Origin: Planctomycetota bacterium | Lineage (GTDB): Bacteria > Planctomycetota > JAJSAM01 | Reading direction: 5' to 3' | DNA: 54,191 nucleotides | Assembly (NCBI GenBank): GCA_025459285.1 | Contig: JALOQY010000002.1 | Coordinates: 1-54,191, forward strand | Shown here: positions 4,098-52,741 of the stretch, piece by piece | Position numbering within the stretch: the stretch's first letter is position 1 | Layout of the letters: each line of letters begins with the position of its first letter | Made by a program: the position numbers and the translations under genes | The notes under the pieces: generated by a model | Told to the model about the DNA's origin: nothing | Database searches by the model: none | What the model saw: only the letters and a program-made list of their open reading frames with translations

Positions 4098-4152
4098 CAG
4101 CCCGTGCGCGTGAGCCCTCATGCGCACGGAGGCCTCTCGGCAACGGGCCGCC
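4095..4152. repeat. degenerate member of the TAG-CAGCCCGT palindromic repeat family
   Basis: Begins with the TAG stop (4095-4097) of the 978..4097 gene, followed by CAGCCCGT. The right arm cggcaacgggccgc resembles the family arm ggcgacgggctgc. The core differs from the other copies. Confidence 0.45.
4102..4129 (+). terminator. stem-loop immediately after the stop codon (12-bp stem with one G-U pair, 4-nt loop)
   Basis: ccgtgcgcgtga-gccc-tcatgcgcacgg. There is no U-tract, so activity as an intrinsic terminator is unproven. Confidence 0.4.
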
Positions 4153-4158
4153 AGGGCG

Positions 4159-4237
4159 GGCAAACTGACCCAGGGGCAAACTGACCCAGGGTCATTCTTC
4201 CCGGGCGGGAGGATTGACCCTGGGTCATTCTTCCCGG
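4159..4237. repeat. tandem plus dyad repeat block in a convergent intergenic region
   Basis: GGCAAACTGACCCAGG occurs twice in tandem (4159-4174, 4175-4190). A 23-nt direct repeat TGACCC(A/T)GGGTCATTCTTCCCGG occurs at 4182-4204 and 4215-4237. Its first 13 nt form the perfect palindrome TGACCCnGGGTCA. Confidence 0.8.
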
Positions 4238-14422: not shown

Positions 14423-14439
14423 GGGAAGGAACGACTATA

Positions 14440-14455
14440 CCCGACGGGCTGCTGA
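14440..14455. repeat. single arm of the palindromic repeat family
   Basis: cccgacgggctgctga lies between the phoU stop and the M14-like gene start. No matching second arm was seen. Confidence 0.4.
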
Positions 14456-25429: not shown

Positions 25430-25500
25430 GGAGCCCTCCCGTGAATCACAACCGGATACCATCCCGAGATCAAGCCTGCGTGAAGGGTGGGTCAATCCTG

Positions 25501-25561
25501 GCAGCCCGTCGGGGCAGAAGGTCGCAGCGCAGAGACCGTCCCTGGCCCCGACGGGCTGCTA
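25501..25561. repeat. palindromic repeat family, best copy (15-bp arms, 29-nt core)
   Basis: gcagcccgtcggggc-(29 nt)-gccccgacgggctgc. The right arm runs into the TAG stop (25559-25561, minus strand) of the toroid gene. It lies between that operon and the phoB promoter region. Confidence 0.85.
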
Positions 25562-30944: not shown

Positions 30945-31020
30945 GGGGTTGTAGCTCAGTTGGGAGAGCGCCGCACTCGCATTGCGGAGGTCAGGGGTTC
31001 GAATCCCCTCAACTCCACCA
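30945..31020 (+). tRNA. tRNA-Ala (anticodon CGC), CCA encoded
   Basis: Cloverleaf folded by hand. Acceptor GGGGTTG/CAACTCC with the G3:U70 alanine identity pair, and D arm GCTC/GAGC. Anticodon stem CCGCA/TGCGG with loop CTCGCAT. T arm AGGGG-TTCGAAT-CCCCT, then ACCA. Confidence 0.97.
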
Positions 31021-34402: not shown

Positions 34403-34543
34403 CCGCGAATCCCCGGAGTTTCGGTGCCGCCAGCGGACTTCGTGAGCGCGCCCGTCGCGATGGGATTGCGGGCGTGCCCGCGCGGTGACGCCGGGGTGAT
34501 CTTCGGCGGCCAGCATCGCGGGTCAGGATCCCGAGGAGGCTCC

Positions 34544-36910: not shown

Positions 36911-38221
36911 GTGCGAGAGTTCGAGCTGATCGACTGGATACGGGGCCGCTCCGGGCCCGCGGGCGGTCTCGTCGTCCTGGGCATCGGGGACGACGCCGCT
37001 GTGCTGGACCTCCGCACGGACGGCCGCGCCGTGGTCACGACAGACCTGATCCTCGAATCGACGCACTTCCTCGCCGGTGACGACCCCTTCGACGTCGGGT
37101 ACAAGGCGATGGCGGTCAGCGTCTCGGATGTCGCGGCGATGGGCTGCCGCTCGGTGGCCGGGTTCCTCGCCGTGGGACTCCGGCGCGACCGGGGGGAGGA
37201 GTACGCGAAACGCCTGTTCGAGGGAGCGCTCGCGGTGTGCCGGGAGGCGGGCGCGGCGCTGGCGGGCGGGGACACGACGGAGTCGCGTGGCGGCACGGTC
37301 CTCTGCTCCACGGTGGTGGGGGCGGTTCCGCCGGGCGGTGAGCCGATCCTCCGGAGCGGGGCTCGACCGGGCGAGGCCGTCTTCGTCACCGGCCGGCTCG
37401 GAGGCTCGCTCGCCGGCCGCCATCTGCGCTTCGCACCGCGCCAGGCCGAGGCGCTGGCCCTCGTGGCCGGGGGGCGGGTGGGCGCCATGATCGATCTCTC
37501 GGACGGTCTCAGTTCCGACGCCGGCCACGTTGCGCGGGCCAGCGGCGTGCGGCTCCTCCTCCTGGCCGACCGGATCCCCATCTCCGAGGCCGCGCGATCG
37601 GCCGCGGACGGGCGGTCCGCTCTGAGCCGTGCCCTCGATGACGGAGAGGACTTCGAACTCCTCTTCACGGCGCCCCATGAGCGCGCGGCGGCGCTGGAGC
37701 GGGACGGTCTCGCCGGGGTGACGTCGGTGCGGGAGATTGTAGGGCCGCCAGGCCGCCTCCTCGTCCTGACGCGCTCCCCGGGGGAGACGCGGGCCTTCGC
37801 GCGCCGCCTGGGGAGTCTGCTCACCGGCGGGGAGTTCGTGGCGCTCTCCGGGCCGCTCGGCGCGGGGAAGACGGCGTTCGTGAAGGGCGTCGCAGAGGGG
37901 ATGGGCATCGATCCCCGGGACGTGACGAGTCCGACCTTCCTCCTGATCCACGAGATTCCGGGACCCCGTCCGCTCTGCCACGCCGATGCCTACCGGGTGC
38001 GAGACGGCGGCGAACTGCGTGAGGCCGGACTGGAGGAGGGTCGCGGTCCCCCCTGGGTGATTGCCGTGGAGTGGGCGGATCGCGTGCCGGACGTGGTGCC
38101 CGCCGATCACCTGTCGGTCGTCCTCTGCCCGGCCGGCGAGGAGGCCCGGGAGATCGTCATCGAGGGCCAGGGGCCGCGCCACGCCGGCCTCGTCGCACGG
38201 CTTGCGGAAGGCCGGCCATGA
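36911..38221 (+). CDS. thiL: fusion ORF: thiamine-monophosphate kinase ThiL + tRNA t6A ATPase TsaE
   Basis: ThiL motifs GIGDDAAVL, VSVSDVAAMG, GGDTTES and DLSDGLSSDAGHVA. Without a stop, TsaE motifs follow: LSGPLGAGKTAFVKG, VTSPTFLLIHE, HADAYRV and VEWADR. GTG start at 36911. Confidence 0.8.
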   Translation: MREFELIDWIRGRSGPAGGLVVLGIGDDAAVLDLRTDGRAVVTTDLILESTHFLAGDDPFDVGYKAMAVSVSDVAAMGCRSVAGFLAVGLRRDRGEEYAKRLFEGALAVCREAGAALAGGDTTESRGGTVLCSTVVGAVPPGGEPILRSGARPGEAVFVTGRLGGSLAGRHLRFAPRQAEALALVAGGRVGAMIDLSDGLSSDAGHVARASGVRLLLLADRIPISEAARSAADGRSALSRALDDGEDFELLFTAPHERAAALERDGLAGVTSVREIVGPPGRLLVLTRSPGETRAFARRLGSLLTGGEFVALSGPLGAGKTAFVKGVAEGMGIDPRDVTSPTFLLIHEIPGPRPLCHADAYRVRDGGELREAGLEEGRGPPWVIAVEWADRVPDVVPADHLSVVLCPAGEEAREIVIEGQGPRHAGLVARLAEGRP

Positions 38222-41200
38222 GGACCCTCGCCGCGCTCCTCATCTTCGCGGGCGTCGCGATCGCGGCCCCCCTCACGGTGACGGTGCGCACCGACGACGG
38301 CGCCGGGAATCACGTCCCGGTGCCCGGAGCGGCGGTCATCGCCGCGGACGCCGGCGCCACGGTCTTCCCGGAGGACGCGCTCTCGGGCGCCCTCTCCACG
38401 GACCCGGCCGGCCGGGCCGTGATCCGCGGCTTCGCCTCCGTCGTGGTCGGCCCGGACGAGACGGAGGTGACGATCGACCTCCCCGCCGAGGCGATCCTCG
38501 CGGGGCGGGTGGTGGACGCGCAAGGGCGGGCGGTGCCGGCGGCGGAGGTCCGGTTGACGCGCGAGACGGGCGAGGACCTCGCGGTGCCCACGGGGCGGGG
38601 GCGCCTGTCGTTCCGGACGTATTGTGACGTCGAAGGGCAGTTCCGAGTGGATCGGTTGGCCCGCGGCGCGCGGTACGCGGTCGTGGTGCGCGCGCCGCCT
38701 TCCGCTCCGCTGGTCCTCCGGGACCACGAGCCGCCTCCGGAGCCGGTGACGCTAGCGCTGGCCCCGGGCGCGGCGGTGCGGGGACGGGTCACGGCCCGGC
38801 CCGGAGGCGAGCCCGTGGCCGGGGCCGAAGTGGTCGCCGGCGAAGCGACGGCCCGGACCGGCCCGGACGGCAGCTTCGTTCTTCGCGGCATCGCCCCCGG
38901 AACGGTCGTCCTCGGCGTGCGGGCGCCGGGCGTGCGGAGCGTCGAGGAGGCCCGGATGCTGCTGGGCCCGGGCGAAGAGAGGTCCGGCGTCGTCCTTGCG
39001 GTGCGGGCGGCGGCGCGGATCCGCGGGCGGGTCCTCCGGCCGGACACGACACCGGCGGCAGGGGCCGAAGTGTTCCTCGTCTACCCGTCCGATCCCGCGA
39101 GGCCGGGGGAGACGCGGCGGATCGAGACCGCACGCTGCGACGACACCGGACGGTTCGAGTCGCAGGACCTCGATCCGGCGCGCGGCGTGGACCTGATCGC
39201 GAGACACCCGGAGTCCTCTCCCGTCGCGCACCTCGGCTACACCCTGTCCGCCGGGGCAAGCGTGGAGGCCGTGGTATTCCTGCGCCCGGGCGGTGTCCTC
39301 GCGGGACGGGTCATCGCGGCGGAGACCGGGGAGGGCGTCGAGGGGGCCACGGTGACCGCGGTGGACGAGGCGGCGGCACCGGCCGGTCCCGGGGCCCCAC
39401 TCGGGACGGCCGGCCTGCTTTCCGTCTCCGCCACGACCGGGAAGGACGGGGCCTTCGTCCTGCCCCATGTGCCCGCCGGGCGCCGGCTGCTCCGGGCGGT
39501 CGCGCCGGGGCGTCCGCCGGCCTCGCTCGCCGGCGTGGAGGTGGCGGAGGGAAGCCGGCGGGAAGGCCTCGGCCTCGTCCTCGGGACGGGCGTCGTCCTC
39601 GCGGGCACGGTGCGGGGAACCGGTGGCGTGCCGCTCGCGGACGCGGAAGTGGCGGCGGAGGGCGCCTTCGGGATTCGCGCCGAGACGCGAACCGGGGCGG
39701 ACGGGACGTTCCGGCTCGCGGGCCTCGTGGCCGGTCCGTGGCGCGTCAGCGTCTCCGCCCCCGGTTACGCCCCCGGCGTCACCCCGGAGGCCATCGCGCC
39801 GGGTCCGGCCCTCGACTTCGTCCTCGGCCGGACGACGGGGATCGCCGGGCGCGTCGTGGTCCCCGGCTCCGGCCCGACGGCGGCCATCGTGCGCGCTCTG
39901 CTCTGGCGCGAGGAGGACCCCGCGGAGCCGGGGCGGCCGTCCTGGAGCGTCGTCGCGGTCCGCCGCGCGGGGGCCGGAGACGGCGCCTTCGCCTTCGCCG
40001 ATCTTCCGCCGGAGACGTTCCGCCTGGAGGCGTTCGCGGAGAACGGGAGCCACGGCCTTCTGGACGGGGTGCGGGCGGGCGGCGAACCGGTGGAGATCGC
40101 GGTGGTGCCGGGATTCCCCGTGAGCGGCCGGGTGGTCCGGAGCATCGACGGCCGGCCGGTGGAGGCGGCGGAGGTGGCGCTACGGGGGAACGCCGATCTG
40201 CCGGCCCCGTGCGCCACGAGGACGGACGCGGAGGGCCGCTTTCGCCTGTCCGGGCTGCCCCCGGGCTTCCACGCGGTCCTGGTCTCCGCACCGGGCTTCG
40301 CCCCCCGGCTGGTGGCGGGAGTCGAGGTCCGGGAGGGGTCTGAGACGGAGATTTCCGACATCCGTCTTTCGGAGGGTGCCGTCGTACGGGGGACCGTGAC
40401 CGGATCCGGTGGGGCGCCGCGGGTGGGCCTCGCGGTGCGACTACGGACCGTCGCCTCCGGTGCCGAGGTGCGGGTGGTTACGGACGAGCGCGGGGAGTTC
40501 GAGGTGTCGGGTCTTGCGGCCGGAGAGTGGCTGGCGAGGGTCGAGGACGCGCGGGCGGGCACGGGGGGGGCCGAGCGGGAGCGGCTCTTCCGGGTGCCGG
40601 AGGAGGGCGAGGTCGAGCTCCTCCTCGGAACCGGCCAGGGGACCACCGTTTCCGGCCGGATCACTCGCCGGGGCGATGCGCAGCCGCACGCCGCCATCAC
40701 CGCCCTGCGGATCACCGGGGGGATCGCCGAGGACCGGGCGTTCCTCACGGTCCGGGCGACGGCGGAGGGGGACTACCAGCTCCCGGACCTCGATCCGGGC
40801 GACTATGTCCTCCTCGTGCGGACGGCCGGCCCCGGGGGCTTCGCCGCGCGGTTCCCGATCCGGGTACGACCCGGACCGTCCCAGACGGAGGATCTCCGCC
40901 TCGCGGACTCCGGGATCGCCGGGCGCGTCGAGGATCTCGACACCGGGGAGGGTGTCGCGGGAGCGGAACTCGTCCTGATCCGGGAGGGTGACCCGGGGAC
41001 CGGGTTCATGGCGGGCCTGTTCGCGGAGGAGGGCCGGGTCCGCTCCGGCGAGGAGGGGGAGTTCAGGTTCGAATCGGTGGAACCGGGGCTGTACCGCATC
41101 CGGGCCTTCCGTGAGGGGAGCGGGCAAGCCGTCGCCGGGCCCATCCGTGTGCTGCCGGGCGGCGAGACGCCGGCGCGGATCGCCCTTCCCCGGGGCGCCC

Positions 41201-41769
41201 GCCTGATCGTGCGCGTCTTCTCGGACCGCGGTCGGCCGGCCCCGGCGGCACGGGTCCGGGTCCTCGACGCGGCAGGCGAACCGGCCACGCTCCCGGCGGA
41301 TCGGCCCTGCGACGCCGAGGGCCGGTGCGTGCTCGACGGGCTCCGCGCCGGGGTGTACACCGTCCGCGTGGAGGCCGAAGGCCGGGCCCCGGCGGAGAGG
41401 ACGGGGGTCGAGGTGTTCCCCGGAGGGCAACCGTTGGAAGTCGAGTTGCGACTGGCCGCGGAAGGTCGCCTGGTGCTCCGCGTGGCGGGGCCGGGGGGCT
41501 TCGGTCTTTCGGGGGCGAAAGTGAGCCTGCGGGATTTCTGGGGCCGACCGGTTCCGTTCACCCGCGTGGAGGCCGGCCTCCGAAGAGCCTTCCGGGAGCC
41601 CGACCAGTCCGACGAGGACGGGGAACTCGCGATCCCGGGCCTGCCGGCGGGGATCTACGAGGTTTCCGCAGAGCTCCCGGGCTTCGCGGGCCGGCCGGCA
41701 CGCGTCCGGGTCCTGGACGGGGAGATGTCGAGGGGGACCGTCGTCCTCGCCCCGATCGAGAAGCGCTAA
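38218..41769 (+). CDS. secreted protein of ~12 tandem carboxypeptidase-regulatory-like (prealbumin-fold) domains
   Basis: The ATG overlaps the thiL-tsaE stop (ATGA). Signal peptide LAALLIFAGVAIA. A recurring ~85-aa module reads GRVxDxxGxPVxGAEVxL....TDxxGxFxLxGLxPGxYxVxVxAPGF. Confidence 0.8.
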   Translation: MRTLAALLIFAGVAIAAPLTVTVRTDDGAGNHVPVPGAAVIAADAGATVFPEDALSGALSTDPAGRAVIRGFASVVVGPDETEVTIDLPAEAILAGRVVDAQGRAVPAAEVRLTRETGEDLAVPTGRGRLSFRTYCDVEGQFRVDRLARGARYAVVVRAPPSAPLVLRDHEPPPEPVTLALAPGAAVRGRVTARPGGEPVAGAEVVAGEATARTGPDGSFVLRGIAPGTVVLGVRAPGVRSVEEARMLLGPGEERSGVVLAVRAAARIRGRVLRPDTTPAAGAEVFLVYPSDPARPGETRRIETARCDDTGRFESQDLDPARGVDLIARHPESSPVAHLGYTLSAGASVEAVVFLRPGGVLAGRVIAAETGEGVEGATVTAVDEAAAPAGPGAPLGTAGLLSVSATTGKDGAFVLPHVPAGRRLLRAVAPGRPPASLAGVEVAEGSRREGLGLVLGTGVVLAGTVRGTGGVPLADAEVAAEGAFGIRAETRTGADGTFRLAGLVAGPWRVSVSAPGYAPGVTPEAIAPGPALDFVLGRTTGIAGRVVVPGSGPTAAIVRALLWREEDPAEPGRPSWSVVAVRRAGAGDGAFAFADLPPETFRLEAFAENGSHGLLDGVRAGGEPVEIAVVPGFPVSGRVVRSIDGRPVEAAEVALRGNADLPAPCATRTDAEGRFRLSGLPPGFHAVLVSAPGFAPRLVAGVEVREGSETEISDIRLSEGAVVRGTVTGSGGAPRVGLAVRLRTVASGAEVRVVTDERGEFEVSGLAAGEWLARVEDARAGTGGAERERLFRVPEEGEVELLLGTGQGTTVSGRITRRGDAQPHAAITALRITGGIAEDRAFLTVRATAEGDYQLPDLDPGDYVLLVRTAGPGGFAARFPIRVRPGPSQTEDLRLADSGIAGRVEDLDTGEGVAGAELVLIREGDPGTGFMAGLFAEEGRVRSGEEGEFRFESVEPGLYRIRAFREGSGQAVAGPIRVLPGGETPARIALPRGARLIVRVFSDRGRPAPAARVRVLDAAGEPATLPADRPCDAEGRCVLDGLRAGVYTVRVEAEGRAPAERTGVEVFPGGQPLEVELRLAAEGRLVLRVAGPGGFGLSGAKVSLRDFWGRPVPFTRVEAGLRRAFREPDQSDEDGELAIPGLPAGIYEVSAELPGFAGRPARVRVLDGEMSRGTVVLAPIEKR

Positions 41770-41825
41770 CAGCCCGTCGGGGCAAGCCTCCGCTCTGGTG
41801 GAAGCCCATCGGCGACGGGCTGCTA
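41767..41825. repeat. palindromic repeat family, sub-family B copy
   Basis: TAA stop (41767-41769), then cagcccgtcggggc, then the core aagcctccgctctggtggaagcccat, then cggcgacgggctgcta. Confidence 0.75.
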
Positions 41826-41837
41826 CCCCGATTGCCC

Positions 41838-41863
41838 CGAACTTTTCGCGGCGGAATCCGTTC
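41838..41863 (+). promoter_or_regulatory. possible ECF-type promoter (GAAC-N16-CGTT) upstream of the ECF sigma gene
   Basis: ccGAACtt at 41839-41842 and CGTT at 41859-41862 are separated by 16 nt. The motif lies ~22 nt upstream of the ATG at 41884, which is consistent with autoregulated ECF promoters. Confidence 0.35.
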
Positions 41864-41883
41864 ACAGGGGACGATGGTGGTTA

Positions 41884-42477
41884 ATGACCGAACCGGACTC
41901 CGAGTTGATGGAACGCTACCGCGATGGCGACGAGGAGGCGTTCCGACTCATCGTCCAGCGGTTCCAGCGACCGCTCATCAACTTCTTTTTCCGGCTGACC
42001 TGGGACCGTTTCGCGGCGGAGGATTACGCCCAGGAGGTTTTCATCCGGCTCATCCGGCACCGGGCGAACTACCGGCCGTCGGCGAAGTTCTCGACCTATC
42101 TGTTCCGTATCGCGAAGAACTACTGGATCGACCGATACCGCGAACGCGCGGCGGCGCCGCGGCCGGCCTCCCTGGAGGCGGTCGTGGGCGGTGAACGAGG
42201 AGACGGGCCGAGGCTCGTGGAGACGGTGGCGAGCGATCTGCCCGGAGCGGAGGAGATGCTGGATCGGAAGGAGATCCGGCGGAGGGTCCGGGAGGCCCTC
42301 CTCGAACTCCCGGAGGAGCAGAGGCTCGTGTTCATCCTCTCGGAGAACCAGGGCCTCCGGTATTCGGACATCGCGGAGGTGATGGAGATCCCGGTCGGCA
42401 CGGTGAAATCACGCATGCACGCGGCGGTCCTGCGCCTGCGGGAGATCCTGAAGGACATCGCCCATGGCACCTCGTGA
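41884..42477 (+). CDS. ECF-type RNA polymerase sigma factor (sigma-70 family, regions 2 and 4)
   Basis: FRLIVQRFQRPLINFFFRL, EDYAQEVFIRLIRH (region 2) and LRYSDIAEVMEIPVGTVKSRMHAAVLRLRE (region 4). Confidence 0.9.
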   Translation: MTEPDSELMERYRDGDEEAFRLIVQRFQRPLINFFFRLTWDRFAAEDYAQEVFIRLIRHRANYRPSAKFSTYLFRIAKNYWIDRYRERAAAPRPASLEAVVGGERGDGPRLVETVASDLPGAEEMLDRKEIRRRVREALLELPEEQRLVFILSENQGLRYSDIAEVMEIPVGTVKSRMHAAVLRLREILKDIAHGTS

Positions 42478-44125
42478 CGGTTGTGACAGACTGGCGGCGG
42501 ACCTGACGGCCTTCGTGCAGGGGGAACTCCCTGCGGAGCGGGCCGCGGAGTTCGAGGCCCATCTCGCCTCCTGCGCGGGATGCCGGGAAGCCGCGGACGG
42601 GATCCGGTCCGTGTTCCGGCTCACCGGCGCGGTGGAGGATCTCACGCCCTCGATGCGTTTCCGCCGGAACGTGGAGGCGCTCCTCCGGAAGGCGCGTTCC
42701 CCCGCGCCCCGGCGTGAGGGAGCCCTGTGGCGGCTCCGGACCGCGGTGGCTTTTCTCCGGGAACGCATCCGGACATCGCCGCGCTTCCGCCTGGCGGCGA
42801 TCTCCGTGGGCGTGCACTCCCTCCTGCTCCTCGCGTTCTCCATCGTCGTGCTGCCCGGAATGACTGACAAGGGGCCCCGCGAGTTCATCGGTGCCATCGA
42901 AAAGCCGCTCGTCGGCGAAGAGCCACCGGTCCGTCCCGGTCCAGGGAACGACTCGGCTTCCGGAGACCCGGAGGCGACGGGGCCCCATCCCCGGCCGCAC
43001 GAAGCGCTCCTGCCACCCCTCGATGCCCCTCCGCTGCCGGACCTGCGCGGACTCCCGCCGCTGCGGGCCCGCACGGAGCACGCCGCGATCACCGCGCTGC
43101 TCGGCTCGACGATCGACGACGGGCTGAAAGTGACGCGACTCGCGGCGTTCGCCGGCGAGGGAGAGAAGTCGCTCGAGGCGGTGCGCAAGGCGCTCCGGTG
43201 GCTCGCGGCGAGGCAGGAGGAGGACGGGTCCTTCGCTCCGATCGCACGCAACCCGGGTTACCGCACGGGAGTGACGGCAGCCGTACTCCTCGCGTTCCTT
43301 TCCGACGGTCACTGCCACACGCGTGGCGAGCGGGAGTTCCGGTTCGTGGTGGCGAAGGGCGTCGACCACCTGCTTCGTTTGCAGCACCAGAGCGGCCGGC
43401 ATGCCGGCCTGATCGGCCCGGCGGAAGGCCACTACGCCTACAACCACGCGCTGGCCACCCTCGCGCTCGTGGAGACGTACGCTCTCGACGGGCGGCGGCT
43501 TCCCCGGGAACGCGCGGCGCGGATCCGGGCCGCCGTGAGCCAGGCGATCGGCCTGCTCCTCCACTCCCAGCGTACGGGCGGCGGCTGGCGCTACGAGCTC
43601 CTTCCGGGCGCCGTGGACAACGACACCTCGGTGACGGTTTTCGCCGCCATGGCCCTCGGGGCCGCGCGCGCGGCGGGTTTCGCGGTTCCCAAGGAGTCGA
43701 CGGACCGCATCGCCGCGTGGCTTTCGGGCGTGACGGACGAGGCCGGCGAGGCCGGCTACCAGCGGGCCGGCGACCGGGGCGGGCAGCCGCCCACGCTGAC
43801 CGCCGGAGCGCTCCTCGCGGAGGAACTGCTCGGGCTCTCGAGCGTGGTCCGCGATCGCCGGGCCGTGATCGTGAAGCGCGAGATCGCCGATCCGCACGGA
43901 TCGCTCGGCCGCAACGGCCTCCTGCGGTTCTACGCCGCGCTGGCGTTCCGTCTGCGGGGGGAGGCGGTCCTGCGGTCCATGGCCCCGGTCATCCTCGGGC
44001 GGCAGCAGGCCGACGGGTCGTTCCGATCAGGCGAGGACCTCCATGGCGTCCATGGCGGGGACGCCTTCCAGACAGCGCTGGAAGTGCTCACGATCACCAC
44101 CGCCTACCATTGGGCCGGCTCCTGA
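42464..44125 (+). CDS. anti-sigma factor (zf-HC2) with one TM segment and a periplasmic alpha/alpha-toroid domain
   Basis: Overlaps the sigma gene by 14 nt. HLASCAGC zinc-finger motif and TM segment LAAISVGVHSLLLLAFSIVVL. The C-terminal repeats LRWLAARQEEDGSFAP, HSQRTGGGWRYE and GRQQADGSFRS resemble the 25559..26686 protein. Confidence 0.8.
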   Translation: MAPRDGCDRLAADLTAFVQGELPAERAAEFEAHLASCAGCREAADGIRSVFRLTGAVEDLTPSMRFRRNVEALLRKARSPAPRREGALWRLRTAVAFLRERIRTSPRFRLAAISVGVHSLLLLAFSIVVLPGMTDKGPREFIGAIEKPLVGEEPPVRPGPGNDSASGDPEATGPHPRPHEALLPPLDAPPLPDLRGLPPLRARTEHAAITALLGSTIDDGLKVTRLAAFAGEGEKSLEAVRKALRWLAARQEEDGSFAPIARNPGYRTGVTAAVLLAFLSDGHCHTRGEREFRFVVAKGVDHLLRLQHQSGRHAGLIGPAEGHYAYNHALATLALVETYALDGRRLPRERAARIRAAVSQAIGLLLHSQRTGGGWRYELLPGAVDNDTSVTVFAAMALGAARAAGFAVPKESTDRIAAWLSGVTDEAGEAGYQRAGDRGGQPPTLTAGALLAEELLGLSSVVRDRRAVIVKREIADPHGSLGRNGLLRFYAALAFRLRGEAVLRSMAPVILGRQQADGSFRSGEDLHGVHGGDAFQTALEVLTITTAYHWAGS

Positions 44126-44133
44126 CGGGAGAA

Positions 44134-44149
44134 CGGTACGGTGTTTGCT
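44134..44149 (+). promoter_or_regulatory. sigma54-type promoter motif (GG-N10-GC)
   Basis: cGGTACggtgtTTGCTg compared with the consensus TGGCAC-N5-TTGCW. The GC lies 43 nt upstream of the ATG at 44191. The fixed positions are the same as in the motif at 50578-50593. Confidence 0.5.
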
Positions 44150-44190
44150 GAAAGGCCCTCGGCGGACGGGAAAGACTGCCGGGGGCGACC

Positions 44191-44421
44191 ATGAGCCCGA
44201 ATGACATTCTGTTTTACGGACTCTGGAGAGGCAAGCGCATCTACCGGGTGGTGCGCGAGGGCCGGGCGCTCTTCGCCGGAACGCGAGGCGAGTGCAGCCG
44301 CTTTCTCACCCTGCACAGCGAGAAAGTCGCCCGGGAGGAGCGCGCCATGGCCTCCCCCAGGCGCCGCCGGCTCGTGCCGAAGCGGTACCGCGTCAGCCTG
44401 CGCCGGTCCGTGGCCGTCTGA
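44191..44421 (+). CDS. small basic protein (76 aa), unknown function
   Basis: About 88 percent G/C at third codon positions by hand count, similar to bona fide genes here. Preceded by a G-rich RBS-like stretch and a sigma54-type motif. Arg-rich C-terminal tail. No family recognised. Confidence 0.5.
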   Translation: MSPNDILFYGLWRGKRIYRVVREGRALFAGTRGECSRFLTLHSEKVAREERAMASPRRRRLVPKRYRVSLRRSVAV

Positions 44422-44786
44422 ATCCGGGCTGACAACTCCCGAACCGGCCCGCAAACGATCGTTATCACGGCGCGGGCACGCCCGCAGCCCAAGATGACGG
44501 GCGCACCCGCGCTGTCGATCAACCGGGGGAGGCAGATCCTCCCCCGCGTGGGCCGATCGCGGGCTCCCCCGGACCCCGCTCCCGCGGCGAAGCCTTGGCG
44601 AAGCCGGGGAGGCCCACGAAAGGCCCTGCTCCGCTTCGCTCCGCATGGCCTCCCCCTCCTCGCCTCCTGCGGCGGCGGGCGCCTCCTGCGCTCGCTCCCG
44701 AGATCTGGGAGCGCCGCGAAGAACCCGAGGTACGGTATCGTACCCGGTGACGGCCCGGTGACCCGCGGCCGGCAGAACTCCGGGAG

Positions 44787-45992
44787 ATGCGGATCCGTCC
44801 CTTTCTCCCATCCCTGCTCCTCGGACTGACCGCCGCCGTCGCGGCGGGGGCGGGCGACGATCCGGTCACGCGGATGGGGAAGACGCTCCTTCCCCGGAGC
44901 GACCTGGTGGTCCGCGGCGCGGCGGTGCGATCGTCGCGGCTGGGGGCGGGCGTGACCGTGGTGCGCTTCGCGGTCGCCGATCCGCTCCACGGCAGACCAG
45001 CCGGTGACACGGTCACGATCCTCGCCGACAATCCGGAAGTCTGCCCGGCCCCGGGGCTCTCGTGCGTGCTCTTCCTCGCCCGTCTGTCCGGTGACCGGTA
45101 CCGGATCGTGGAACGTATGGACCTCGCCGGTGTGGATGGGGCCGCCAAGCTGAAGACCCTGCGGGCCTATCTCGCCATCGAGGAGATGACCGATCCGGTG
45201 GAAAAGCGGCGGGCGCTGCGGGCCCTCCTGCTGGAAAACCTGATCAGCGGTGACAACTTCCTCGTCTACAGCTCGGCGCGCGAACTGGCCCACTTCACCG
45301 AGGAGAATGCCGGGTTGTTCACGCCGGAGGACGCGGCGATCCTCGCGGGCAAGAGACAGACCGCGCGAGACCCGCTGCTCACTGACCTGCTCACGACCTC
45401 GCTCGAGCGGCTCCCTCCACCACCGGGGGCCGAGGAGACCGCGCCACCGATCCCACGGGCTCTCCGGTCGCCGGAGTTCGAGCGCCTCGCGGCGGCCTTC
45501 GAGAAGGGGATCGAGGACGTGGAGGAACGACGCTCGGCCCTCGCGGCCCTCTGCGCGCGACATCTCCGCCACGCCGGTCCGATCCTCCTCGCCGCCCTGT
45601 CCGACCCGGATCCGGTCGTTCGGGAGATGGCCGCACGGGAGGCCGGAGAGGCCGGGCTCGCGGAAGCGGTGAAGCCGCTTATTGCGCTCCTCGGTCGGGA
45701 GAAGGACCGGGAGGTCCTGCGGGGGGTCATACAGGGGCTTGGACTCCTCCGAAGCGAAGAGGCGTTCGCCTCGATTTCGGCCTTCGCCGCCGACGCGGGT
45801 CTCGTCCGGGCCGTGGCCACGGCGGCGATGAGGATCGGCACGACCGGGGCGGTGGACTTCGTCCGCGGGCTGCGCGCGTCCCGCGGGGAGAAAGAACCGG
45901 AACTCGCGGACTTCCTCGACTTTCTGCTTTCCGAGCGCTTCGTGGAGCAGGAGGCCGTCCTGGCGCGGGTCCGCGCCGGCCGCCTGCGTTAG
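44787..45992 (+). CDS. secreted HEAT-repeat protein
   Basis: Signal peptide PSLLLGLTAAVAAGAG. HEAT repeats (LLAALSDPDPVVREMAAREAGEAG, LIALLGREKDREVLRGVIQGLG). Confidence 0.75.
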   Translation: MRIRPFLPSLLLGLTAAVAAGAGDDPVTRMGKTLLPRSDLVVRGAAVRSSRLGAGVTVVRFAVADPLHGRPAGDTVTILADNPEVCPAPGLSCVLFLARLSGDRYRIVERMDLAGVDGAAKLKTLRAYLAIEEMTDPVEKRRALRALLLENLISGDNFLVYSSARELAHFTEENAGLFTPEDAAILAGKRQTARDPLLTDLLTTSLERLPPPPGAEETAPPIPRALRSPEFERLAAAFEKGIEDVEERRSALAALCARHLRHAGPILLAALSDPDPVVREMAAREAGEAGLAEAVKPLIALLGREKDREVLRGVIQGLGLLRSEEAFASISAFAADAGLVRAVATAAMRIGTTGAVDFVRGLRASRGEKEPELADFLDFLLSERFVEQEAVLARVRAGRLR

Positions 45993-46050
45993 TAGCCCGT
46001 CGGGGTAAGGGGTCGCATTGCCGAGAACGTCCCCGGCCCCGACAGCCCGG
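45990..46050. repeat. palindromic repeat family, sub-family A copy (plus an extra inverted arm at 46088-46106)
   Basis: TAG stop (45990-45992), then tagcccgtcggggt, then the core aaggggtcgcattgccgagaacgtcccc, then ggccccgacagcccgg. The 12-nt cggggtaagggg (46001-46012) recurs inverted at 46088-46099. Confidence 0.75.
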
Positions 46051-46132
46051 CGTCCGGGCGGAAACGGGACCGGAGCCGGCGATGAAACCCCTTACCCCGG
46101 TCGGCCCCGAGGCGGTACACTCGCCCATTCCC

Positions 46133-47671
46133 ATGAAGACGCTCCGGCCGGAAGTTCTCCTGCTCCTCGTTTCGCTCCTCCTCGCTGGGGGCCACCGCGT
46201 GGCCGCGGCGGGCGAAGTGCCGCTCACGCTCGAGGAGTGCCTCCGACGGGCCCTCGAGGCCTCCCTGCAGATCCGGGAGGGACGATTCGTCCCGGAGATC
46301 GCCGAAACCTACATCTCCGAGGCGGAATCGGAATTCGAGCACCTGCTTTCCTTCAACACGTTCGGAGGGAAGTCCAGGATCCCTTCGGGGACGGTCTTCG
46401 CGGGCGGCGACAAGATCGAGGAACAGAGTTTCGGCGCGGATGCGGCGATCGGACAGAAGGTGCGGACCGGTGGCACCTGGTCGTTCGGGTTCCAGACATC
46501 GGACCTCGTGACCGACAGCTTCTTCTACACGATCCGGCCGGCGTGGACGAACTCGTTCTCCTTCCGGGTGCGCCAACCAGTGCTGCGCCGGGGCGGCATC
46601 TCCTACAACGAGGCGAATATCCGGAGCGCGGAGGCTTCGACGCGGGCCGCGCGGGCCGAGTACCGGAATCTCCTGGAGCGGACACTCGCGGGTGTGGAGC
46701 GGTCGTACTGGCTGCTCGTCTACGCCGGAGCCGACCTCGAGGTGAAGCGCCACTCGCTGCGCGTGGCCGAGGAGTTGCTTCGGATCAGCCGGCGGCGTCT
46801 CGAGGCGGGAGCCGGAACGCGGATCGAGGTCGTGCAAGCCGAGGCGGGCATCGCGCAGCGAGAGAAGGAGTTGATTCTTGCCGAGCACCGCCTGGCCTCC
46901 TCGAGGGACGTCCTCAGGTCCTTCGTCTTCCCGTTCGTCGAGAAGAACGGCGAGCAGGAGTTCCTGATCGCGCCGCGCGACTCGGCGTCACCGTCGCCCA
47001 CGCCCCCCTCCGGGAACCTGGAGAGCAGGATCCGCCTGGCCTTTGAACGCCGGCCGGACGTAGAGGCGACGAAGGAGGCGCTCGAGGCGGCGGGCATCCG
47101 GGTCAGCCAGCGCGAGAACGAGCTTCTTCCGCAGGTGGACGCCTTCGGACGGGTCGGACTCGCCGGGCTGGAGGAGAGTTTCTCGGAGTCGTCGCGGATC
47201 GCCATGAGCCGGAGATTCCCAACTTGGGAGGTCGGGATTTCTGTCGAGATCCCGCTGGGAAACGAGGCGGCCCGGTCCCGTCACCGCCGTTCGCTTCTGG
47301 AGCGCGCGAAGATCGCCGCGGGCTTCGAGACGCTGAAAAACCAGGTGGTCGTGGATGTCCGGGATGCGTGGCGTCTGATCGAGACCTCCCGGCGCGAAAT
47401 CGAGGCCAGCCGTCGCGCCGTGGCGGCGGCGCAGGCGCAGTTCGAGGCGGAGCGCGACCGGGTGGAGGCGGAGAAGTCGACGAACTACCAGTTGCTGGAG
47501 ACGGAGCAGGACCTCTCGGAGGCGAAGAGCCAGGAGCTCTTCTCCCTGGTCGGCTATCGCATCGCCCTGGTGAACATCGAGGAGGCCACCGGCACCTACC
47601 TGGAGACGAGGGGCCTGGCCATGCCGGAGGGCGATTCCTTCCGTGAGGACGGCCCCGAGGGCGCCCGGTGA
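46133..47671 (+). CDS. TolC-family outer-membrane efflux protein
   Basis: Signal peptide MKTLRPEVLLLLVSLLLAGG. Two-repeat helical/beta architecture with the typical LTLEECLRRALE start and coiled-coil repeats. An alternative ATG at 46082 has a better GGAG RBS but lies in repeat-derived sequence. Confidence 0.8.
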   Translation: MKTLRPEVLLLLVSLLLAGGHRVAAAGEVPLTLEECLRRALEASLQIREGRFVPEIAETYISEAESEFEHLLSFNTFGGKSRIPSGTVFAGGDKIEEQSFGADAAIGQKVRTGGTWSFGFQTSDLVTDSFFYTIRPAWTNSFSFRVRQPVLRRGGISYNEANIRSAEASTRAARAEYRNLLERTLAGVERSYWLLVYAGADLEVKRHSLRVAEELLRISRRRLEAGAGTRIEVVQAEAGIAQREKELILAEHRLASSRDVLRSFVFPFVEKNGEQEFLIAPRDSASPSPTPPSGNLESRIRLAFERRPDVEATKEALEAAGIRVSQRENELLPQVDAFGRVGLAGLEESFSESSRIAMSRRFPTWEVGISVEIPLGNEAARSRHRRSLLERAKIAAGFETLKNQVVVDVRDAWRLIETSRREIEASRRAVAAAQAQFEAERDRVEAEKSTNYQLLETEQDLSEAKSQELFSLVGYRIALVNIEEATGTYLETRGLAMPEGDSFREDGPEGAR

Positions 47672-49269
47672 AGGGCGTCCCGGCGATCCTTGCACTCGCG
47701 GTCCTGCTCCCCGGGTGCCCCGGGAAGGAGCCTCCCCGGCGCGGTGCGGTGCCGAGACTCGAGACCCCGCCTCCGTCGCGTCCGCCCCTCGTCGTCCCGG
47801 AAGCCGATCCCCCCCCGGAGGCGAAGATCTCGTTCTACCTGGACCTTGTCGCACTGGGTGTCGCGGACGACCTCGCCTGGGCGCTCGGTCAGCTTCGAAA
47901 GGCGGGCGAGGCGGCGGCCGAGCCGCTGCGGGCGCGCCTCGCGGCCCGGTTCGGCCGGCCGGAGACGGAGCACTTCGTCCACGCGTTCGCGGAGGCGGTC
48001 CCACCCGCCGGCGCGATGGACCTGCTCCTCCGCGCGGCGACAGTCCGGGACGAGCGCGTCGGTCTCCACGCGGCCCGCGCGCTCGGACGGACCGGAAAGG
48101 CGGAGGCCCTGCCCGCCCTTTTCGACCTTCTCGGAAGTGGCATCCACCCGGTGTCGGACGCCGCGCTCGAGGGGATCCTCGCGATCGGCGGCGAGGCGGC
48201 GGTGAACGGCTTCCTGGGACGGTTCCCGCAGCACATGGACCCCGACGTTGCGGCGCGAGCCATTCAACCGGTCTCGGAACTGCTCCCCGACCGCACACGA
48301 ACGGCCTTCCTCCGGGGTGCGCTCGCCAGCGAGGATCCGCGGATCTCCCTCGCCGCCGCCCGTCAGGTCTTCCGATCCCTGCCGGAACTCCGCGCCGCGG
48401 CTCGCGCCCGGGTCGACGACTTTCTCGACGGCGACTACCGCGGCCCGGCCCTGGAGGTTCTGGCGGAGGCCCGGGACCAGGTGGCGCTCGGCGCCCTGTG
48501 CGGTCTCAGCCGTGTGGAAGACGACGGTGCGGCGATCTTCGCTCTCGGTAACCTCTCACACTATGAAGCGCCGGAAGCGAGGGCGGCGCTGTGGGACGCG
48601 GCGGTATCGCGCCACGACGCCCGGCGGCGGGAGGCCCTGCACGCCCTCGCTCGGTCCGGCGACCCCGGCGCGCTGCCCCGGATCCGCGGGATGCTCTCCT
48701 CCCGGGAGGTGGCCGACCGGCTGGTGGCCGCTCTCGTCCTCGGGTCGATCCGGGACCCCGGTTCGCTCCCGGAACTCCGGGCGGCAGCCGAGGTGGAACC
48801 GGAACCGAACGTCCGAGTGAAACTGGCGAACGCCATCGCACTTCTCGGGGCGACGGAAGGGTCGGCAACGGTGGTCCGGATGCTCCTCGCCGAGCGCGAG
48901 ACGGAGCCGAGCGTGGCTTTCGTCGCGAATCAGGCCGCCTCCATGCTGCTGCGGTTTCCAGAGCTGTCCCCGGAAGCGCGCGGCTTCCTCGGGGCCGCCC
49001 TCCGATCCCCGAACGAGGCGATCCGGATGAACGCGGCGCGCGCCGCGGGACGACGCGGACTCGGCAGTGATCTGACGGCGCTCCTCGGACGGCTGCTCAC
49101 CGACCCGTCGGTCCACGTCCGGCGCTCCGCCGTCGGAGGCTACGTCTTGGCGGACGGGGCCACAGCGGAACCGGTGGCCCTGGCGTACCGCCGGGAGGGG
49201 GACGGGCGGCTGGCGCAGGAGATGGAGGTGGCGGTACGGAAGCTCGTCCATCGATGGCAGGACCCGTGA
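47668..49269 (+). CDS. HEAT-repeat lipoprotein
   Basis: The GTG overlaps the TolC stop (GTGA). Lipobox LAVLLPGC. Multiple HEAT repeats (HAARALGRTGKAEALPALFDLL, ALHALARSGDPGALPRIRGML). Confidence 0.75.
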   Translation: MKGVPAILALAVLLPGCPGKEPPRRGAVPRLETPPPSRPPLVVPEADPPPEAKISFYLDLVALGVADDLAWALGQLRKAGEAAAEPLRARLAARFGRPETEHFVHAFAEAVPPAGAMDLLLRAATVRDERVGLHAARALGRTGKAEALPALFDLLGSGIHPVSDAALEGILAIGGEAAVNGFLGRFPQHMDPDVAARAIQPVSELLPDRTRTAFLRGALASEDPRISLAAARQVFRSLPELRAAARARVDDFLDGDYRGPALEVLAEARDQVALGALCGLSRVEDDGAAIFALGNLSHYEAPEARAALWDAAVSRHDARRREALHALARSGDPGALPRIRGMLSSREVADRLVAALVLGSIRDPGSLPELRAAAEVEPEPNVRVKLANAIALLGATEGSATVVRMLLAERETEPSVAFVANQAASMLLRFPELSPEARGFLGAALRSPNEAIRMNAARAAGRRGLGSDLTALLGRLLTDPSVHVRRSAVGGYVLADGATAEPVALAYRREGDGRLAQEMEVAVRKLVHRWQDP

Positions 49270-49274
49270 CCTTC

Positions 49275-49336
49275 CAGCCTGTCGGGGCCAAGGACGATCT
49301 CTGCGCTGCGACCCCTTCGCCTCGAAAGGCTGCTGG
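49275..49336. repeat. palindromic repeat family, sub-family A copy in inverted orientation
   Basis: cagcctgtcggggccaaggacgatctctgcgctgcgacc matches the reverse complement of 25501-25559 at 36 of 39 positions (hand alignment). It starts 5 nt after the TGA at 49267-49269. Confidence 0.8.
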
Positions 49337-49362
49337 TGGCCGGTGTTCGGGAGGTGGCCTCC

Positions 49363-50415
49363 ATGGACGGCGTGACGATTCTCGAGAAGGCGATCGAACT
49401 GGGTGCCTCGGACGCGATCCTCACGGCGGGGGAGCCGCCGGTGTACCGCGTGCTCGGAAACCTCCGCACCGACACCAGTGGCGAGCGCCTGTCGCCGGAG
49501 GACACGAGGAGGATCCTGTACTCCCTCCTGCGCCAGCACCAGGTCGTGCGTTTCGAGAAGGAGCGCGAACTCGATTTCTCGGTGGCCCTGCCGGGGGACC
49601 GGCGATTCCGTGCCAATGCCTTCCTCCAGCGGGGAGCCGTGGGCGCCGCGTTCCGCCGCATCCCGGAGAAGGTGCCACGCTTGTCCGAGCTGGAGCTTCC
49701 GCCGGCGCTGGCGCGACTGGCGCTCTCGCAGCAGGGCCTCCTCCTCGTCACCGGCCCGACGGGCTCGGGGAAGACCACCACCCTGGCGGCCCTCGTGGAG
49801 GAGATCAACCAGGTCCGCAGGGCGCACATCGTCACGATCGAAGACCCCATCGAGTACCTCCACCACAACTGCCGGTCGATCATCGAGCAGCGCGAGGTCG
49901 GGGAGGACACCCTCAGTTTCGCCGCAGCGCTGCGGCACGTGCTGCGGCAGGACCCCGACGTGATCCTCGTGGGGGAGATGCGCGACCTCGAGGCGATCTC
50001 GACCGCGCTGACCGCGGCGGAAACAGGCCACCTCGTCCTCGGGACGCTCCACACGAACGATTGCGCCCAGAGCGTGGACCGGATCGTGGATGTCTTCCCC
50101 GCGGCCCAGCAGGGCCAAGTGCGCAGTCAGCTCGCGGCATCCCTGCTGGCCATCTTCTCCCAGCGGCTCATCCCCCGTTCCGACCGTAGGGGGTTGATCC
50201 CGGCGTCGGAACTTCTCGTGGCCACGATGGCCGCCCGGGCCCACATCCGCGAAGACCGCCTGCACCAGCTCACTTCGGTCATCGAGACCGGTGGGCGGGA
50301 AGGGATGCACACCCTCGACCAGAGCCTCCGGGATCTCTTCCAGACGGGACGGATCCCTCTCGAGGAGGCTCTGCGGTACTGCCGGAACCCCCGGGAGCTC
50401 CAGAGCCTGAAGTAG
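49363..50415 (+). CDS. pilT: type IV pilus retraction ATPase PilT
   Basis: GASDAILTAGEPP, Walker A GPTGSGKTTT, IVTIEDPIEY, ILVGEMRD and LVLGTLHTN. ATG at 49363 follows GGGAGG at 8-nt spacing. Confidence 0.9.
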   Translation: MDGVTILEKAIELGASDAILTAGEPPVYRVLGNLRTDTSGERLSPEDTRRILYSLLRQHQVVRFEKERELDFSVALPGDRRFRANAFLQRGAVGAAFRRIPEKVPRLSELELPPALARLALSQQGLLLVTGPTGSGKTTTLAALVEEINQVRRAHIVTIEDPIEYLHHNCRSIIEQREVGEDTLSFAAALRHVLRQDPDVILVGEMRDLEAISTALTAAETGHLVLGTLHTNDCAQSVDRIVDVFPAAQQGQVRSQLAASLLAIFSQRLIPRSDRRGLIPASELLVATMAARAHIREDRLHQLTSVIETGGREGMHTLDQSLRDLFQTGRIPLEEALRYCRNPRELQSLK

Positions 50416-50577
50416 GAATCGCGGTTCCGGAAGCAGCGTGGACGATGTTCTCCCGCGACGACGGTCCGGGACCTGTCCTTCGGATTGGACGGCCCGGGAG
50501 GGGTGGGTGGCCCGCCTCGCCCCGGGAATGTCCACCGATCGACGATCCGGTCGTTTCCGCGTGTTCTTCGAGGCGAT

Positions 50578-50593
50578 TGGTACTCTCCTTGCT
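50578..50593 (+). promoter_or_regulatory. sigma54-type promoter motif (GG-N10-GC)
   Basis: tGGTACtctccTTGCTg. The GC lies 35 nt upstream of the ATG at 50627. The in-frame stretch upstream of that ATG has markedly lower G/C at third positions, which supports it being non-coding. Confidence 0.5.
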
Positions 50594-50626
50594 GTGAGAG
50601 GGGCGGGGGGACGGAGGTTTCGGAGA

Positions 50627-51076
50627 ATGGCGTTGAACGAACTCGAGGTCGACGAACGGAGGTTGCCGGGCGGAGACCGGCGGCGGCGTCCGACGCCGAT
50701 GCTGAGCCGATACACGCTTTGGGGCCGCCGGCGGAACATGCGCCGGGCGAGCGAGATGGCCAATTCCTATGTGGATCGCTATGGGTTCCGAGTAGCGGCG
50801 GTCCTCGCGGGGATCCTCATTCTGTGCGTGCTCGATGCGGTCTTCACCCTCCTTTACCTCCAGAAGGGCGGGGGAGAACTGAACCCCCTGATGCGCCGCG
50901 CGATCGAGGCCGGCACGGGGCCGTTCATCGCCATCAAGTGCGGTCTCACCATCGCGGGGATCCTCTTCCTTGCGCTGCACAAGAACTTCCGCTTCGTGAA
51001 GGGGCTCATCGCGGGAGTCCTCGGGTTCTACCTGCTCCTCCTCGGCTACCACCTGTACCTCGCGTCGGTTACCTAG
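50627..51076 (+). CDS. small membrane protein, DUF5658-like, with Arg-rich N-terminal tail
   Basis: ATG at 50627 follows GGAGG. The N-terminus reads GGDRRRRPTPMLSRYTLWGRRRNMRR. Four hydrophobic helices follow, with the LDAVFTLLYL..GGGELNPLM motif I associate with DUF5658 (from memory). Confidence 0.65.
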   Translation: MALNELEVDERRLPGGDRRRRPTPMLSRYTLWGRRRNMRRASEMANSYVDRYGFRVAAVLAGILILCVLDAVFTLLYLQKGGGELNPLMRRAIEAGTGPFIAIKCGLTIAGILFLALHKNFRFVKGLIAGVLGFYLLLLGYHLYLASVT

Positions 51077-51119
51077 CAGCCCGTCGGGGCGGGGATCGCG
51101 TGTTCTTCCCCGAGGCCGG
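51074..51119. repeat. truncated copy of the palindromic repeat family
   Basis: TAG stop (51074-51076) followed by cagcccgtcggggc. Only a weak second arm is present (ccccgaggccgg, 51108-51119). Confidence 0.5.
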
Positions 51120-51138
51120 TCTTGCCGAGGGTGGTACA

Positions 51139-52674: not shown

Positions 52675-52684
52675 GAGCCTGCTG

Positions 52685-52741
52685 GCAGCCTGTCGCCGGG
52701 ATGCCTCCGCGCGCCCGGGGGCTTGTGCCGACGGGCTGTTA
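52685..52741. repeat. palindromic repeat family, sub-family B copy shared by two convergent genes
   Basis: gcagcctgtcgccgg-(core)-gccgacgggctg runs into the TAA stop (52739-52741) of the minus-strand HEAT gene. The left arm starts 10 nt after the TAG of the Kelch gene. Confidence 0.75.

Follow-up and report, generated by a model that had tools for sequence, protein, structure and literature searches.

Short hairpin-forming repeats at the 3' ends of bacterial genes have been described in several forms. Repetitive extragenic palindromes (REPs) of the GTAG class and REP-based hairpin doublets (REPINs) are extragenic palindromes of small size and high GC content that stand between genes in convergent or co-directional arrangement (Di Nocera et al., 2013; Nunvar et al., 2010). 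GTAG REPs are present in Planctomycetes and Verrucomicrobia, where TAG stop codons are often supplied by their termini (PMC3733652). In Escherichia coli, REPs found within 15 nt of a stop codon reduce translation by stalling ribosomes, according to work cited in PMC12306157, and inverted repeats overlapping gene 3' ends have been noted (PMC2775950). Among insertion sequences (ISs), IS1272 of the IS1182 family inserts into hairpins or terminators downstream of genes, which it deletes or replaces with no target duplication (PMC5678879, PMC4923244), and a 4-bp duplication has been reported for one IS1182 member (PMC3281130). IS5, the family closest to IS1182 by the profiles used here, has YTAR (Y, pyrimidine; R, purine) as its target duplication (PMC10359306). 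Here we analyze a hairpin repeat in a 54,191-nt stretch of DNA from a Planctomycetota bacterium (assembly GCA_025459285.1, contig JALOQY010000002.1, positions 1-54,191; hereafter the window), where the repeat begins with striking precision at stop codons. [quoted passage not shown]

Eight copies of the repeat were read directly in the window, whose GC content is 71-72%, and comprise seven full hairpin units of 47-65 bp and one solitary arm, with coordinates and sequences as given in a preliminary description of this DNA (Table 1). The motif CAGCCCGTCGGGGC with at most two mismatches occurs 12 times, compared to 4.8 expected. Arms have the consensus (C/T)TA(G/A)-CAGCCCGTCGG, their termini read GCTGCTAGC or GCTGTTAGC, and over 14-18 nt (CAGCCCGTCGGGGC / GCCCCGACGGGCTG) they form terminal inverted repeats. 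Unlike the ISs of the IS1182 family, the window copies have no transposase, just a pair of inverted terminal repeats and a short spacer; they contain no open reading frame of their own and have no coding capacity, and their length is under the ~300-bp MITE limit. Their interiors define subtypes A, B, and C, of which A and C are also found in L095 and L105 (L numbers denote loci outside the window); over 51 nt, copy 1 shares 84% identity with L095:87-137. All eight copies lie between convergent or co-directional genes, none between divergent genes. Pristine copies fold as long perfect hairpins with the stop codon inside the stem. Copy 3 is the sole pristine copy in the window (fold z -5.2), the other stems being mostly decayed (z -0.7 to -2.7, one at +0.4), including that of copy 4 (-30.6 kcal/mol, z -1.8).

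In six of the eight copies the arm begins directly after a stop codon, as the preliminary description had claimed; its further statements, that CGC or CGT (Arg) is the preceding codon in four of these six and that the seventh full copy starts 5 nt past a TGA, also hold. When each element was placed at random in its own intergenic space, 0.28 abutments were expected, and the probability of six or more among seven was 1.6e-9. The abutted genes have third-position GC of 0.79-0.93 in the coding frame, as real genes do, and Pfam domains (CarboxypepD_reg, HEAT_2, DUF5658, SQHop_cyclase_C) reach near the C-terminus in five of the six. The same registry recurs outside the window. Among the matches listed, at least six further arms stand at offset 0 from real genes in Lentisphaerae, Opitutaceae, Planctomycetota, and metagenome contigs; the genes encode a phosphoribosyltransferase, a PEGA protein, an FKBP isomerase, a GNAT acetyltransferase, a PepSY protein, and one product with no Pfam match. 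In one further case, a sulfate symporter gene, the stop is formed by the first three bases of the arm itself (TAG). As in the window, CTAG, TTAG, or CTAA stands before the arm CAGCCCGTCGG in these contigs.

The identity of the abutted stops is as restricted as their position. All 12, from the window and other taxa together, are TAG or TAA. TGA is absent from this set (P about 1e-7), yet 19 of the 26 element-free stops in the window are TGA. The flanking tetranucleotide is YTAR, with a pyrimidine before TAG or TAA, in 11 of the 12, and none of the five element-free TAG stops in the window that follow a purine is abutted by an element. More broadly, of ~25 arms facing the 3' end of a gene, 21 are no more than 11 nt from the stop. 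The relatives were collected with two scans. A search of a genome collection with the pattern CAGCCCGTCGG(N20-50)CGACGGGCTG was unspecific and returned mostly chance matches in GC-rich genomes; the true relatives among the matches listed were L010, L024, L042, L056, L058, and L059, from metagenome-assembled genomes of Lentisphaerae, Opitutaceae, and Planctomycetota. A stricter metagenome scan gave 12 loci and added L090, L093, L095, L097, and L098. Scanning viral contigs for the repeat and searching plasmids with the element by BLAST gave no matches.

What kind of element carries such arms? First, at four independent loci outside the source genome (L088, L056, L093, and L095), IS1182-family transposase genes are bracketed by hairpins that belong to this repeat family or are a close variant of it. 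In L088, two hairpins of a GAGCCCGTCGG variant enclose a full-length 505-residue transposase, CTAG flanks the unit as a whole on both sides, and the protein scores 371 bits against NCBIfam NF033551 (IS1182 family; curated cut-off 270). L056 has an internally deleted DDE transposase of 335 residues (DUF772, DDE_Tnp_1, DDE_Tnp_1_6) between two hairpins whose outermost arms are identical over 15 nt. L093 has an N-terminal transposase fragment between two hairpins, with a shorter copy of the same junction 3 kb away, and in L095 a C-type and an A-type hairpin, both of them subtypes of the window, enclose a C-terminal remnant. The fragments in L056 and L093 fall below the NF033551 cut-off owing to truncation, and in profile scoring of the hairpin-linked transposases IS5 models gave secondary matches only. 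Second, a plasmid search with the L088 protein found named relatives at ~50% identity, including ISMno38 of Methylobacterium nodulans. ISMno38 was located via the protein alone, and its two identical copies define the ends as CTAG-GAGCCCGTCCGAGTAA on both sides (also written CTAG-GAGCCCGTC); the window consensus, CTAGCAGCCCGTCGGGGC, agrees with its left and right repeats, CTAGGAGCCCGTCCGAGTAA, in 13 of the first 15 positions. Third, an IS1182-family copy in Bradyrhizobium has the ends CTAG-GAGCTTGTCTGG ... CCAGACGGGCTC-CTAG, and the terminal CTAG-(C/G)AGCCCGTC is common to ISMno38, the Bradyrhizobium copy, and the window repeat. Because of the hairpin-bracketed transposases and the match to the ISMno38 ends, we assign the window arms as the terminal inverted repeats of an ISMno38-like IS1182 clade and the window copies as MITE-like derivatives, two inverted repeats and a spacer with no transposase. 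An association with palindromes and hairpins 3' of genes, as in the window repeat, is known for the IS1182 family (PMC4923244, PMC5678879). One difference is that each IS end at the loci of the Planctomycetota-Verrucomicrobiota-Chlamydiota (PVC) group is a complete hairpin, whereas ISMno38 has simple terminal repeats. The terminal hairpins of L088 (1404-1460 and 3176-3232) are each internally perfect and differ from one another by fully compensated changes (GGGGATAGGGCGG vs GGCCATAGGGCCG), a pattern as though each arm had been copied from its partner.

The flanks of these elements point to the target. CTAG stands on both sides of the pristine copies L095:1065 and L058:1655, and around the L088 IS and ISMno38. 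In Bradyrhizobium plasmids, the flank ...GAAGGCA(G/T)CTAG is joined to an IS630-family element in one plasmid and to an IS1182-family element in a second, which makes CTAG there part of the target and not of the IS. Several CTAG-seeking IS families share this site (L108:440-1891, L109:540-640) as a hot spot. A preference for rare TA- or CTAG-type targets is likewise found in IS5, IS630/Tc1-mariner, and MITEs such as RUP and Correia. Such targets are scarce in the window, where YTAR occurs 14 times compared to 99 +/- 8 in dinucleotide-preserving shuffles, a depletion of about seven-fold. The 14 sites comprise six element-stop junctions, two element-free stops, four intergenic sites, and two inside genes. 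In the element-free relatives L100 and L101, stops make up five of the 14 YTAR sites outside reading frames. We considered whether an excess of YTAR stops in the window argues for stop donation by the element, and rejected this argument; YTAR stops are 8 of 32 in the window and 1 of 16 and 4 of 17 in the relatives, a difference that is not significant once L101 is included. These flanks would fit a duplication of 2 bp, of 4 bp, or none, as CTAG is palindromic and the non-palindromic flanks are mixed. TAA is found at the same end in both B-type copies and with no A- or C-type copy, and this restriction suggests that the base after TA probably belongs to the element.

Taken with these results, the stop-codon registry probably arises as follows. 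The MITE consists of two inverted copies of an ISMno38-like IS1182 terminal repeat (CTAG-(C/G)AGCCCGTC...) around a spacer of ~27 nt, would be moved by a transposase supplied in trans and encoded outside the window, and would insert at TA-containing CTAG/YTAR sites, as in related IS5. At 72% GC and with YTAR depleted ~seven-fold, the non-coding sites that remain would largely be TAG or TAA stops after C or T. Insertion into such a stop would leave the target TA (or YTAR), perhaps as a duplication of 2 or 4 bp, followed by the first base of the element (G, or A in the B subtype), and the stop would be rebuilt in place with the protein unchanged; insertions at the few intragenic YTAR sites would be purged by selection. 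With a need for YTAR, which is rare and concentrated at stops, and with coding insertions purged, a large share of insertions would fall on stops. Selection would then hold the stop-serving tetranucleotide at TAG or TAA, and the far end and the hairpin would decay under GC-biased mutation, the end becoming CTGG, CCAG, or CTAC. Transposition in this lineage presumably took this route. Among the seven non-stop ends in the window, one still reads TAR and the others have become CTGG, CCAG, CTTC, or TCAG, most of which differ from CTAG by one or two changes, largely AT-to-GC. These decayed ends and weakened stems argue for a selfish insertion followed by neutral decay, with selection probably acting on the stop only.

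Ordinary transposon biology would thus explain a striking registry, since a GC-rich genome offers a CTAG/TA-seeking element few harmless sites besides TAG and TAA stops. The preliminary description held this registry to be undescribed, which is wrong, as GTAG REP termini were already reported to provide stops (Di Nocera et al., PMC3733652). The phenomenon of stop-associated repeat termini is not new, and the repeat belongs to a known kind of element rather than representing a new mechanism. For IS1182 derivatives we found no report of such registry at stop codons, nor a statement in the literature of the IS1182 assignment or the target-rarity explanation; a literature search by sequence returned only unrelated primers and nothing on the repeat family. 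Target rarity may explain the frequent reports of REP-like termini that 'provide' stop codons, and it bears on the target choice of IS1182, which is unsettled in the literature (IS1272 targets hairpins without duplication). In annotation, the repeats are markers of true 3' ends, and IS1182-derived MITEs, not REPs, is the class in which they should be placed. A stem that contains the stop could also affect termination or mRNA stability at many genes.

Orthologous sites in relatives that lack the element bear on what was there before insertion. At gene B, which adjoins the pristine copy 3, the window reads ...FIR, cgc TAG followed by the element; L104, from the closest relative and the same sample as L099, reads ...FAR, cgc TAG at the same codon with no element. 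The HEAT-D and DUF5658 genes end in TAG plus element in the window and in TGA in relatives, with the same C-terminal length, and HEAT-F ends in TAA plus element in the window and in cgg TAG in relatives, again with the same length. At the focal site (41767), the window has TAA plus element and relatives have TGA, with a C-terminal tail longer by one codon in L101 and four codons in L105. C-terminal length is therefore kept at four of the five comparable sites, which speaks against overwriting, and the stop is TGA in relatives at three of the five. The final Arg is also present in element-free orthologs and is therefore not donated by the element. Of three explanations offered earlier, the targeting of CTAG/TTAG-like sites is thus the best supported, given the YTAR flanks, the YTAR depletion and its concentration at stops, the CTAG-flanked IS1182 relatives (one with a target-derived CTAG), and the element-free cgc-TAG of L104. 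A second, that the element overwrote native 3' ends and donated the stop and last residue, mostly fails on C-terminal length and the Arg codon; what stands is that the third stop base probably comes from the element, and donation of the stop itself is possible at the three sites with TGA in relatives. Contigs of the same strain (L001, L002, and L103) have insertions identical to those of the window, with no empty alleles. Alignment with the relative at 89% identity did not define exact insertion boundaries, as the element-adjacent flanks are too diverged.

Five observations weigh against insertion of an IS1182-derived MITE at YTAR stops. First, TGA in place of TAG or TAA at three of the five orthologous sites means that stop codons must have turned over since insertion. 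In a small sample, element-free control genes (PilT and anti-sigma) likewise end in TAG in some of these genomes and in TGA in others, and TGA in relatives is therefore compatible with turnover, yet keeps the donation model alive. Second, copies that lie 1-7 nt past a stop rather than on it (49275, 52686, L105, L097, L098, L024, and L059) are closer than simple targeting predicts, given the rarity of CTAG. Third, the non-palindromic flanks agree consistently neither as direct nor as inverted repeats and show no clean target duplication. Fourth, no transposase gene was seen in the 54-kb window, most of whose genes are unannotated, or in ~17 kb of the closest relative. Finally, at the element-free gene B site an unrelated 56-nt hairpin (L104:1656-1711, z -3.0) directly follows the TAG stop, as would fit replacement of one hairpin by another. 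In the closest relative, a well-preserved A-type element (L105:4966-5040) begins 6 nt past the TAG of the anti-sigma gene (TAG TA CTGG-CAGCC...); at the matching site the window has TGA and no element.

We raise tentatively the idea that stop-codon homing is an evolved property of this IS1182 clade in Planctomycetota, Verrucomicrobiota, and Lentisphaerota and not a by-product of CTAG rarity. IS ends that are self-contained hairpins would be able to move alone, and the terminal G or A may be tuned so that TAG or TAA is rebuilt in either orientation. If this were true, a strong hairpin would be set on the stops of a sizeable fraction of genes; about one quarter of the genes in the window have such a repeat at most a few nucleotides away from the stop.

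Replacement of hairpins strikes us as an unlikely account of the registry. By this account the element, like IS1272, would cut bluntly and take the place of an existing hairpin or terminator just downstream of a gene with no target duplication, its own CTAG would give a new in-frame stop, and only protein-sparing events would survive. The IS1272 precedent (PMC5678879, PMC4923244) favors it, as do the lack of clean duplications around window copies and the TGA stops at three of five orthologous sites, which suggest that TAG or TAA came with the element. The TAA of both B-type copies indicates that at least the third stop base moves with the element. Moreover, a different hairpin occupies the same position at the element-free L104 site, L105 has a weak stem beginning at the stop, and element-adjacent sequence cannot be aligned with relatives whereas distal intergenic sequence can. 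However, if insertion followed pre-existing hairpins, these should generally abut stops, and we found that they do not: native hairpins in element-free 3' regions begin -2 to +40 nt after the stop, and replacement alone would give neither a spike at offset 0 nor a rule of pyrimidine before TAR. The pyrimidine found in 11 of 12 cases is expected for a sequence-specific target, and the stop at the youngest copy is already cgc-TAG in the closest relative. IS1272 of staphylococci has no primary-sequence target and makes no duplication, whereas the clade of the window repeat has CTAG flanks, which stand on both sides of full-length relatives and are target-derived.

A selected function, in which a stable hairpin at +1 after the stop would protect the mRNA 3' end, terminate transcription, or tune translation termination, appears improbable. 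It would be consistent with the concentration of gene-3'-facing arms within 11 nt of stops, with the restriction of copies to convergent or co-directional gene pairs, and with the E. coli precedent cited in PMC12306157, where the hairpin is also immediately 3' of the stop and from which a similar effect on the upstream gene is possible. Yet selection for such a hairpin, the third of the earlier explanations, does not agree with the loss of stem stability in most window copies or with the absence of TGA among abutted stops, which a structural need alone would not predict given that TGA is the commonest stop, and the element is missing at orthologous sites in relatives. Unlike E. coli REPs, most window copies are decaying, and their registry is explained by the insertion target, not by regulation. 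No Rfam family matches the repeat; the sole Rfam match in the window is a tRNA gene (RF00005, 71 bits) at 30945-31017. The repeats do not fit intrinsic terminators, as no T-run follows the GC-rich hairpins and a terminator scan called none of the window elements.

Two other parentages were rejected. Mobilization of a GTAG-type REP or REPIN by a REP-associated tyrosine transposase (RAYT, IS200/IS605-like), with the tetranucleotide as cleavage or target tag, is very improbable: the palindromic, extragenic, multi-copy character of the repeat, the TAG-containing tetranucleotide at its ends, and the presence of TAG-providing GTAG REPs in Planctomycetes and Verrucomicrobia (PMC3733652) recommend it, but the tag here is YTAR, which starts with C or T instead of G and is base-paired at both ends rather than unpaired at one, the arms are not self-palindromic, the unit is a single hairpin of 55-65 bp as against 20-40 bp (definition in PMC3733652), and all four hairpin-bracketed transposases are DDE enzymes of the IS1182 family, not single-tyrosine (Y1) enzymes, with arms that match ISMno38. 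The earlier comparison with REPs and bacterial interspersed mosaic elements is thus not the best filing for a derivative of a DDE transposon. The second was descent from IS630. Non-autonomous derivatives of IS5- and IS630-type elements are likewise small repeats that form hairpins. Besides the Bradyrhizobium case, in which an IS630-family element occupies the CTAG used by IS1182 in a sister plasmid, an IS630-family element in L099 also terminates at CTAG. Its terminal repeat (GTGGGCTGTCC...) does not match the window element, and its end, TA-GTGGGCTGTCCATC, is unrelated to the arms, although a TA duplication is still possible. This IS630-family element (DDE_3 + HTH_32; L099:1-1143) ends at CTAG just upstream of the gene for a 76-residue protein and is missing from an overlapping contig of the same sample (L105:5900-5969), and is thus polymorphic in that population.

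Table 1. Copies of the hairpin repeat in the window and the genes whose stop codons they abut.
Feature	Coordinates	Strand	Description
Copy 1	4094-4154		C-type, interior diverged, full-length; CTAG contains TAG stop 4095-4097 of gene 978-4097; far end CCAG
Solitary arm	14438-14455	-	TCAG-CAGCCCGTCGGGTA; 29 nt past TGA stop, just upstream of next gene's ATG; not at stop
Copy 3	25498-25562		A-type; 15-bp perfect stem; CTAG 25559-25562 contains TAG stop 25561-25559 (minus strand); far end decayed to CTGG
Copy 4 (focal)	41766-41826		B-type; CTAA-CAGCCCGTCGGGGC, 27-nt spacer, GGCGACGGGCTG-CTAC; TAA 41767-41769 is stop of CarboxypepD_reg gene
Copy 5	45989-46050		A-type; TTAG contains TAG stop 45990-45992 of HEAT-repeat gene; right arm truncated (GCCCCGAC-AGCCCGG)
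Copy 6	49271-49336		A-type, inverted; arm (49275) begins 5 nt past TGA stop 49267-49269; flanks decayed to CTTC and CTGG
Copy 7	51073-51119		Left arm perfect, right arm degenerate; CTAG contains TAG stop 51074-51076 of DUF5658 gene; fold z +0.4, decayed
Copy 8	52682-52742		B-type; fills 64-nt gap of convergent genes; TTAG 52739-52742 is TAA stop 52741-52739 (minus strand) of HEAT-repeat gene; second arm 11 nt beyond TAG of Kelch gene
Gene of 1039 codons, no Pfam match	978-4097	+	TAG stop adjoins copy 1
Prenyltransferase/SQHop_cyclase_C-like gene (375 aa)	25559-26686	-	TAG stop adjoins copy 3
CarboxypepD_reg repeat protein gene	38071-41769	+	TAA stop is outer tetranucleotide of copy 4
HEAT-repeat gene	44787-45992	+	TAG stop adjoins copy 5
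DUF5658 gene (start codon uncertain)	50438-51076	+	TAG stop adjoins copy 7
HEAT-repeat gene	52739-54013	-	TAA stop adjoins copy 8

The four downstream abutted sites involve genes with syntenic orthologs in three relatives, which further supports these as real genes. They lie in a conserved cluster (window 38071-54013) that is syntenic in L100, L101/L102, and L099 at 64-89% identity and encodes, in order, the CarboxypepD_reg protein, an extracytoplasmic function (ECF) sigma factor, a zf-HC2 anti-sigma factor, a 76-residue protein, a HEAT protein, an outer-membrane efflux protein, a HEAT protein, a PilT-like ATPase, the DUF5658 protein, a Big_5/Kelch protein, and a HEAT protein.

Other repeats are also present. 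Directly after copy 1, between convergent genes (window 4157-4236), GGGCAAACTGACCCAGGG occurs twice in direct orientation ahead of an inverted TGACCCTGGGTCATTCTTCCCG unit; this arrangement yields a 13-bp perfect stem (TGACCCAGGGTCA) and is unrelated to the hairpin repeat. A second unrelated family of ~200 nt is represented at window 44470-44697, between the gene for the 76-residue protein and HEAT-D, and at 34446-34483; in the closest relative it occurs at L099:6077-6220, in the HEAT-G/PilT intergenic region and in the opposite orientation to the window. Finally, an intergenic region of 850 nt in L105 (5000-5800), compared to 66 nt in the window, contains repeated TTGACAAGTT / CTTGTCAACTTGCC motifs.

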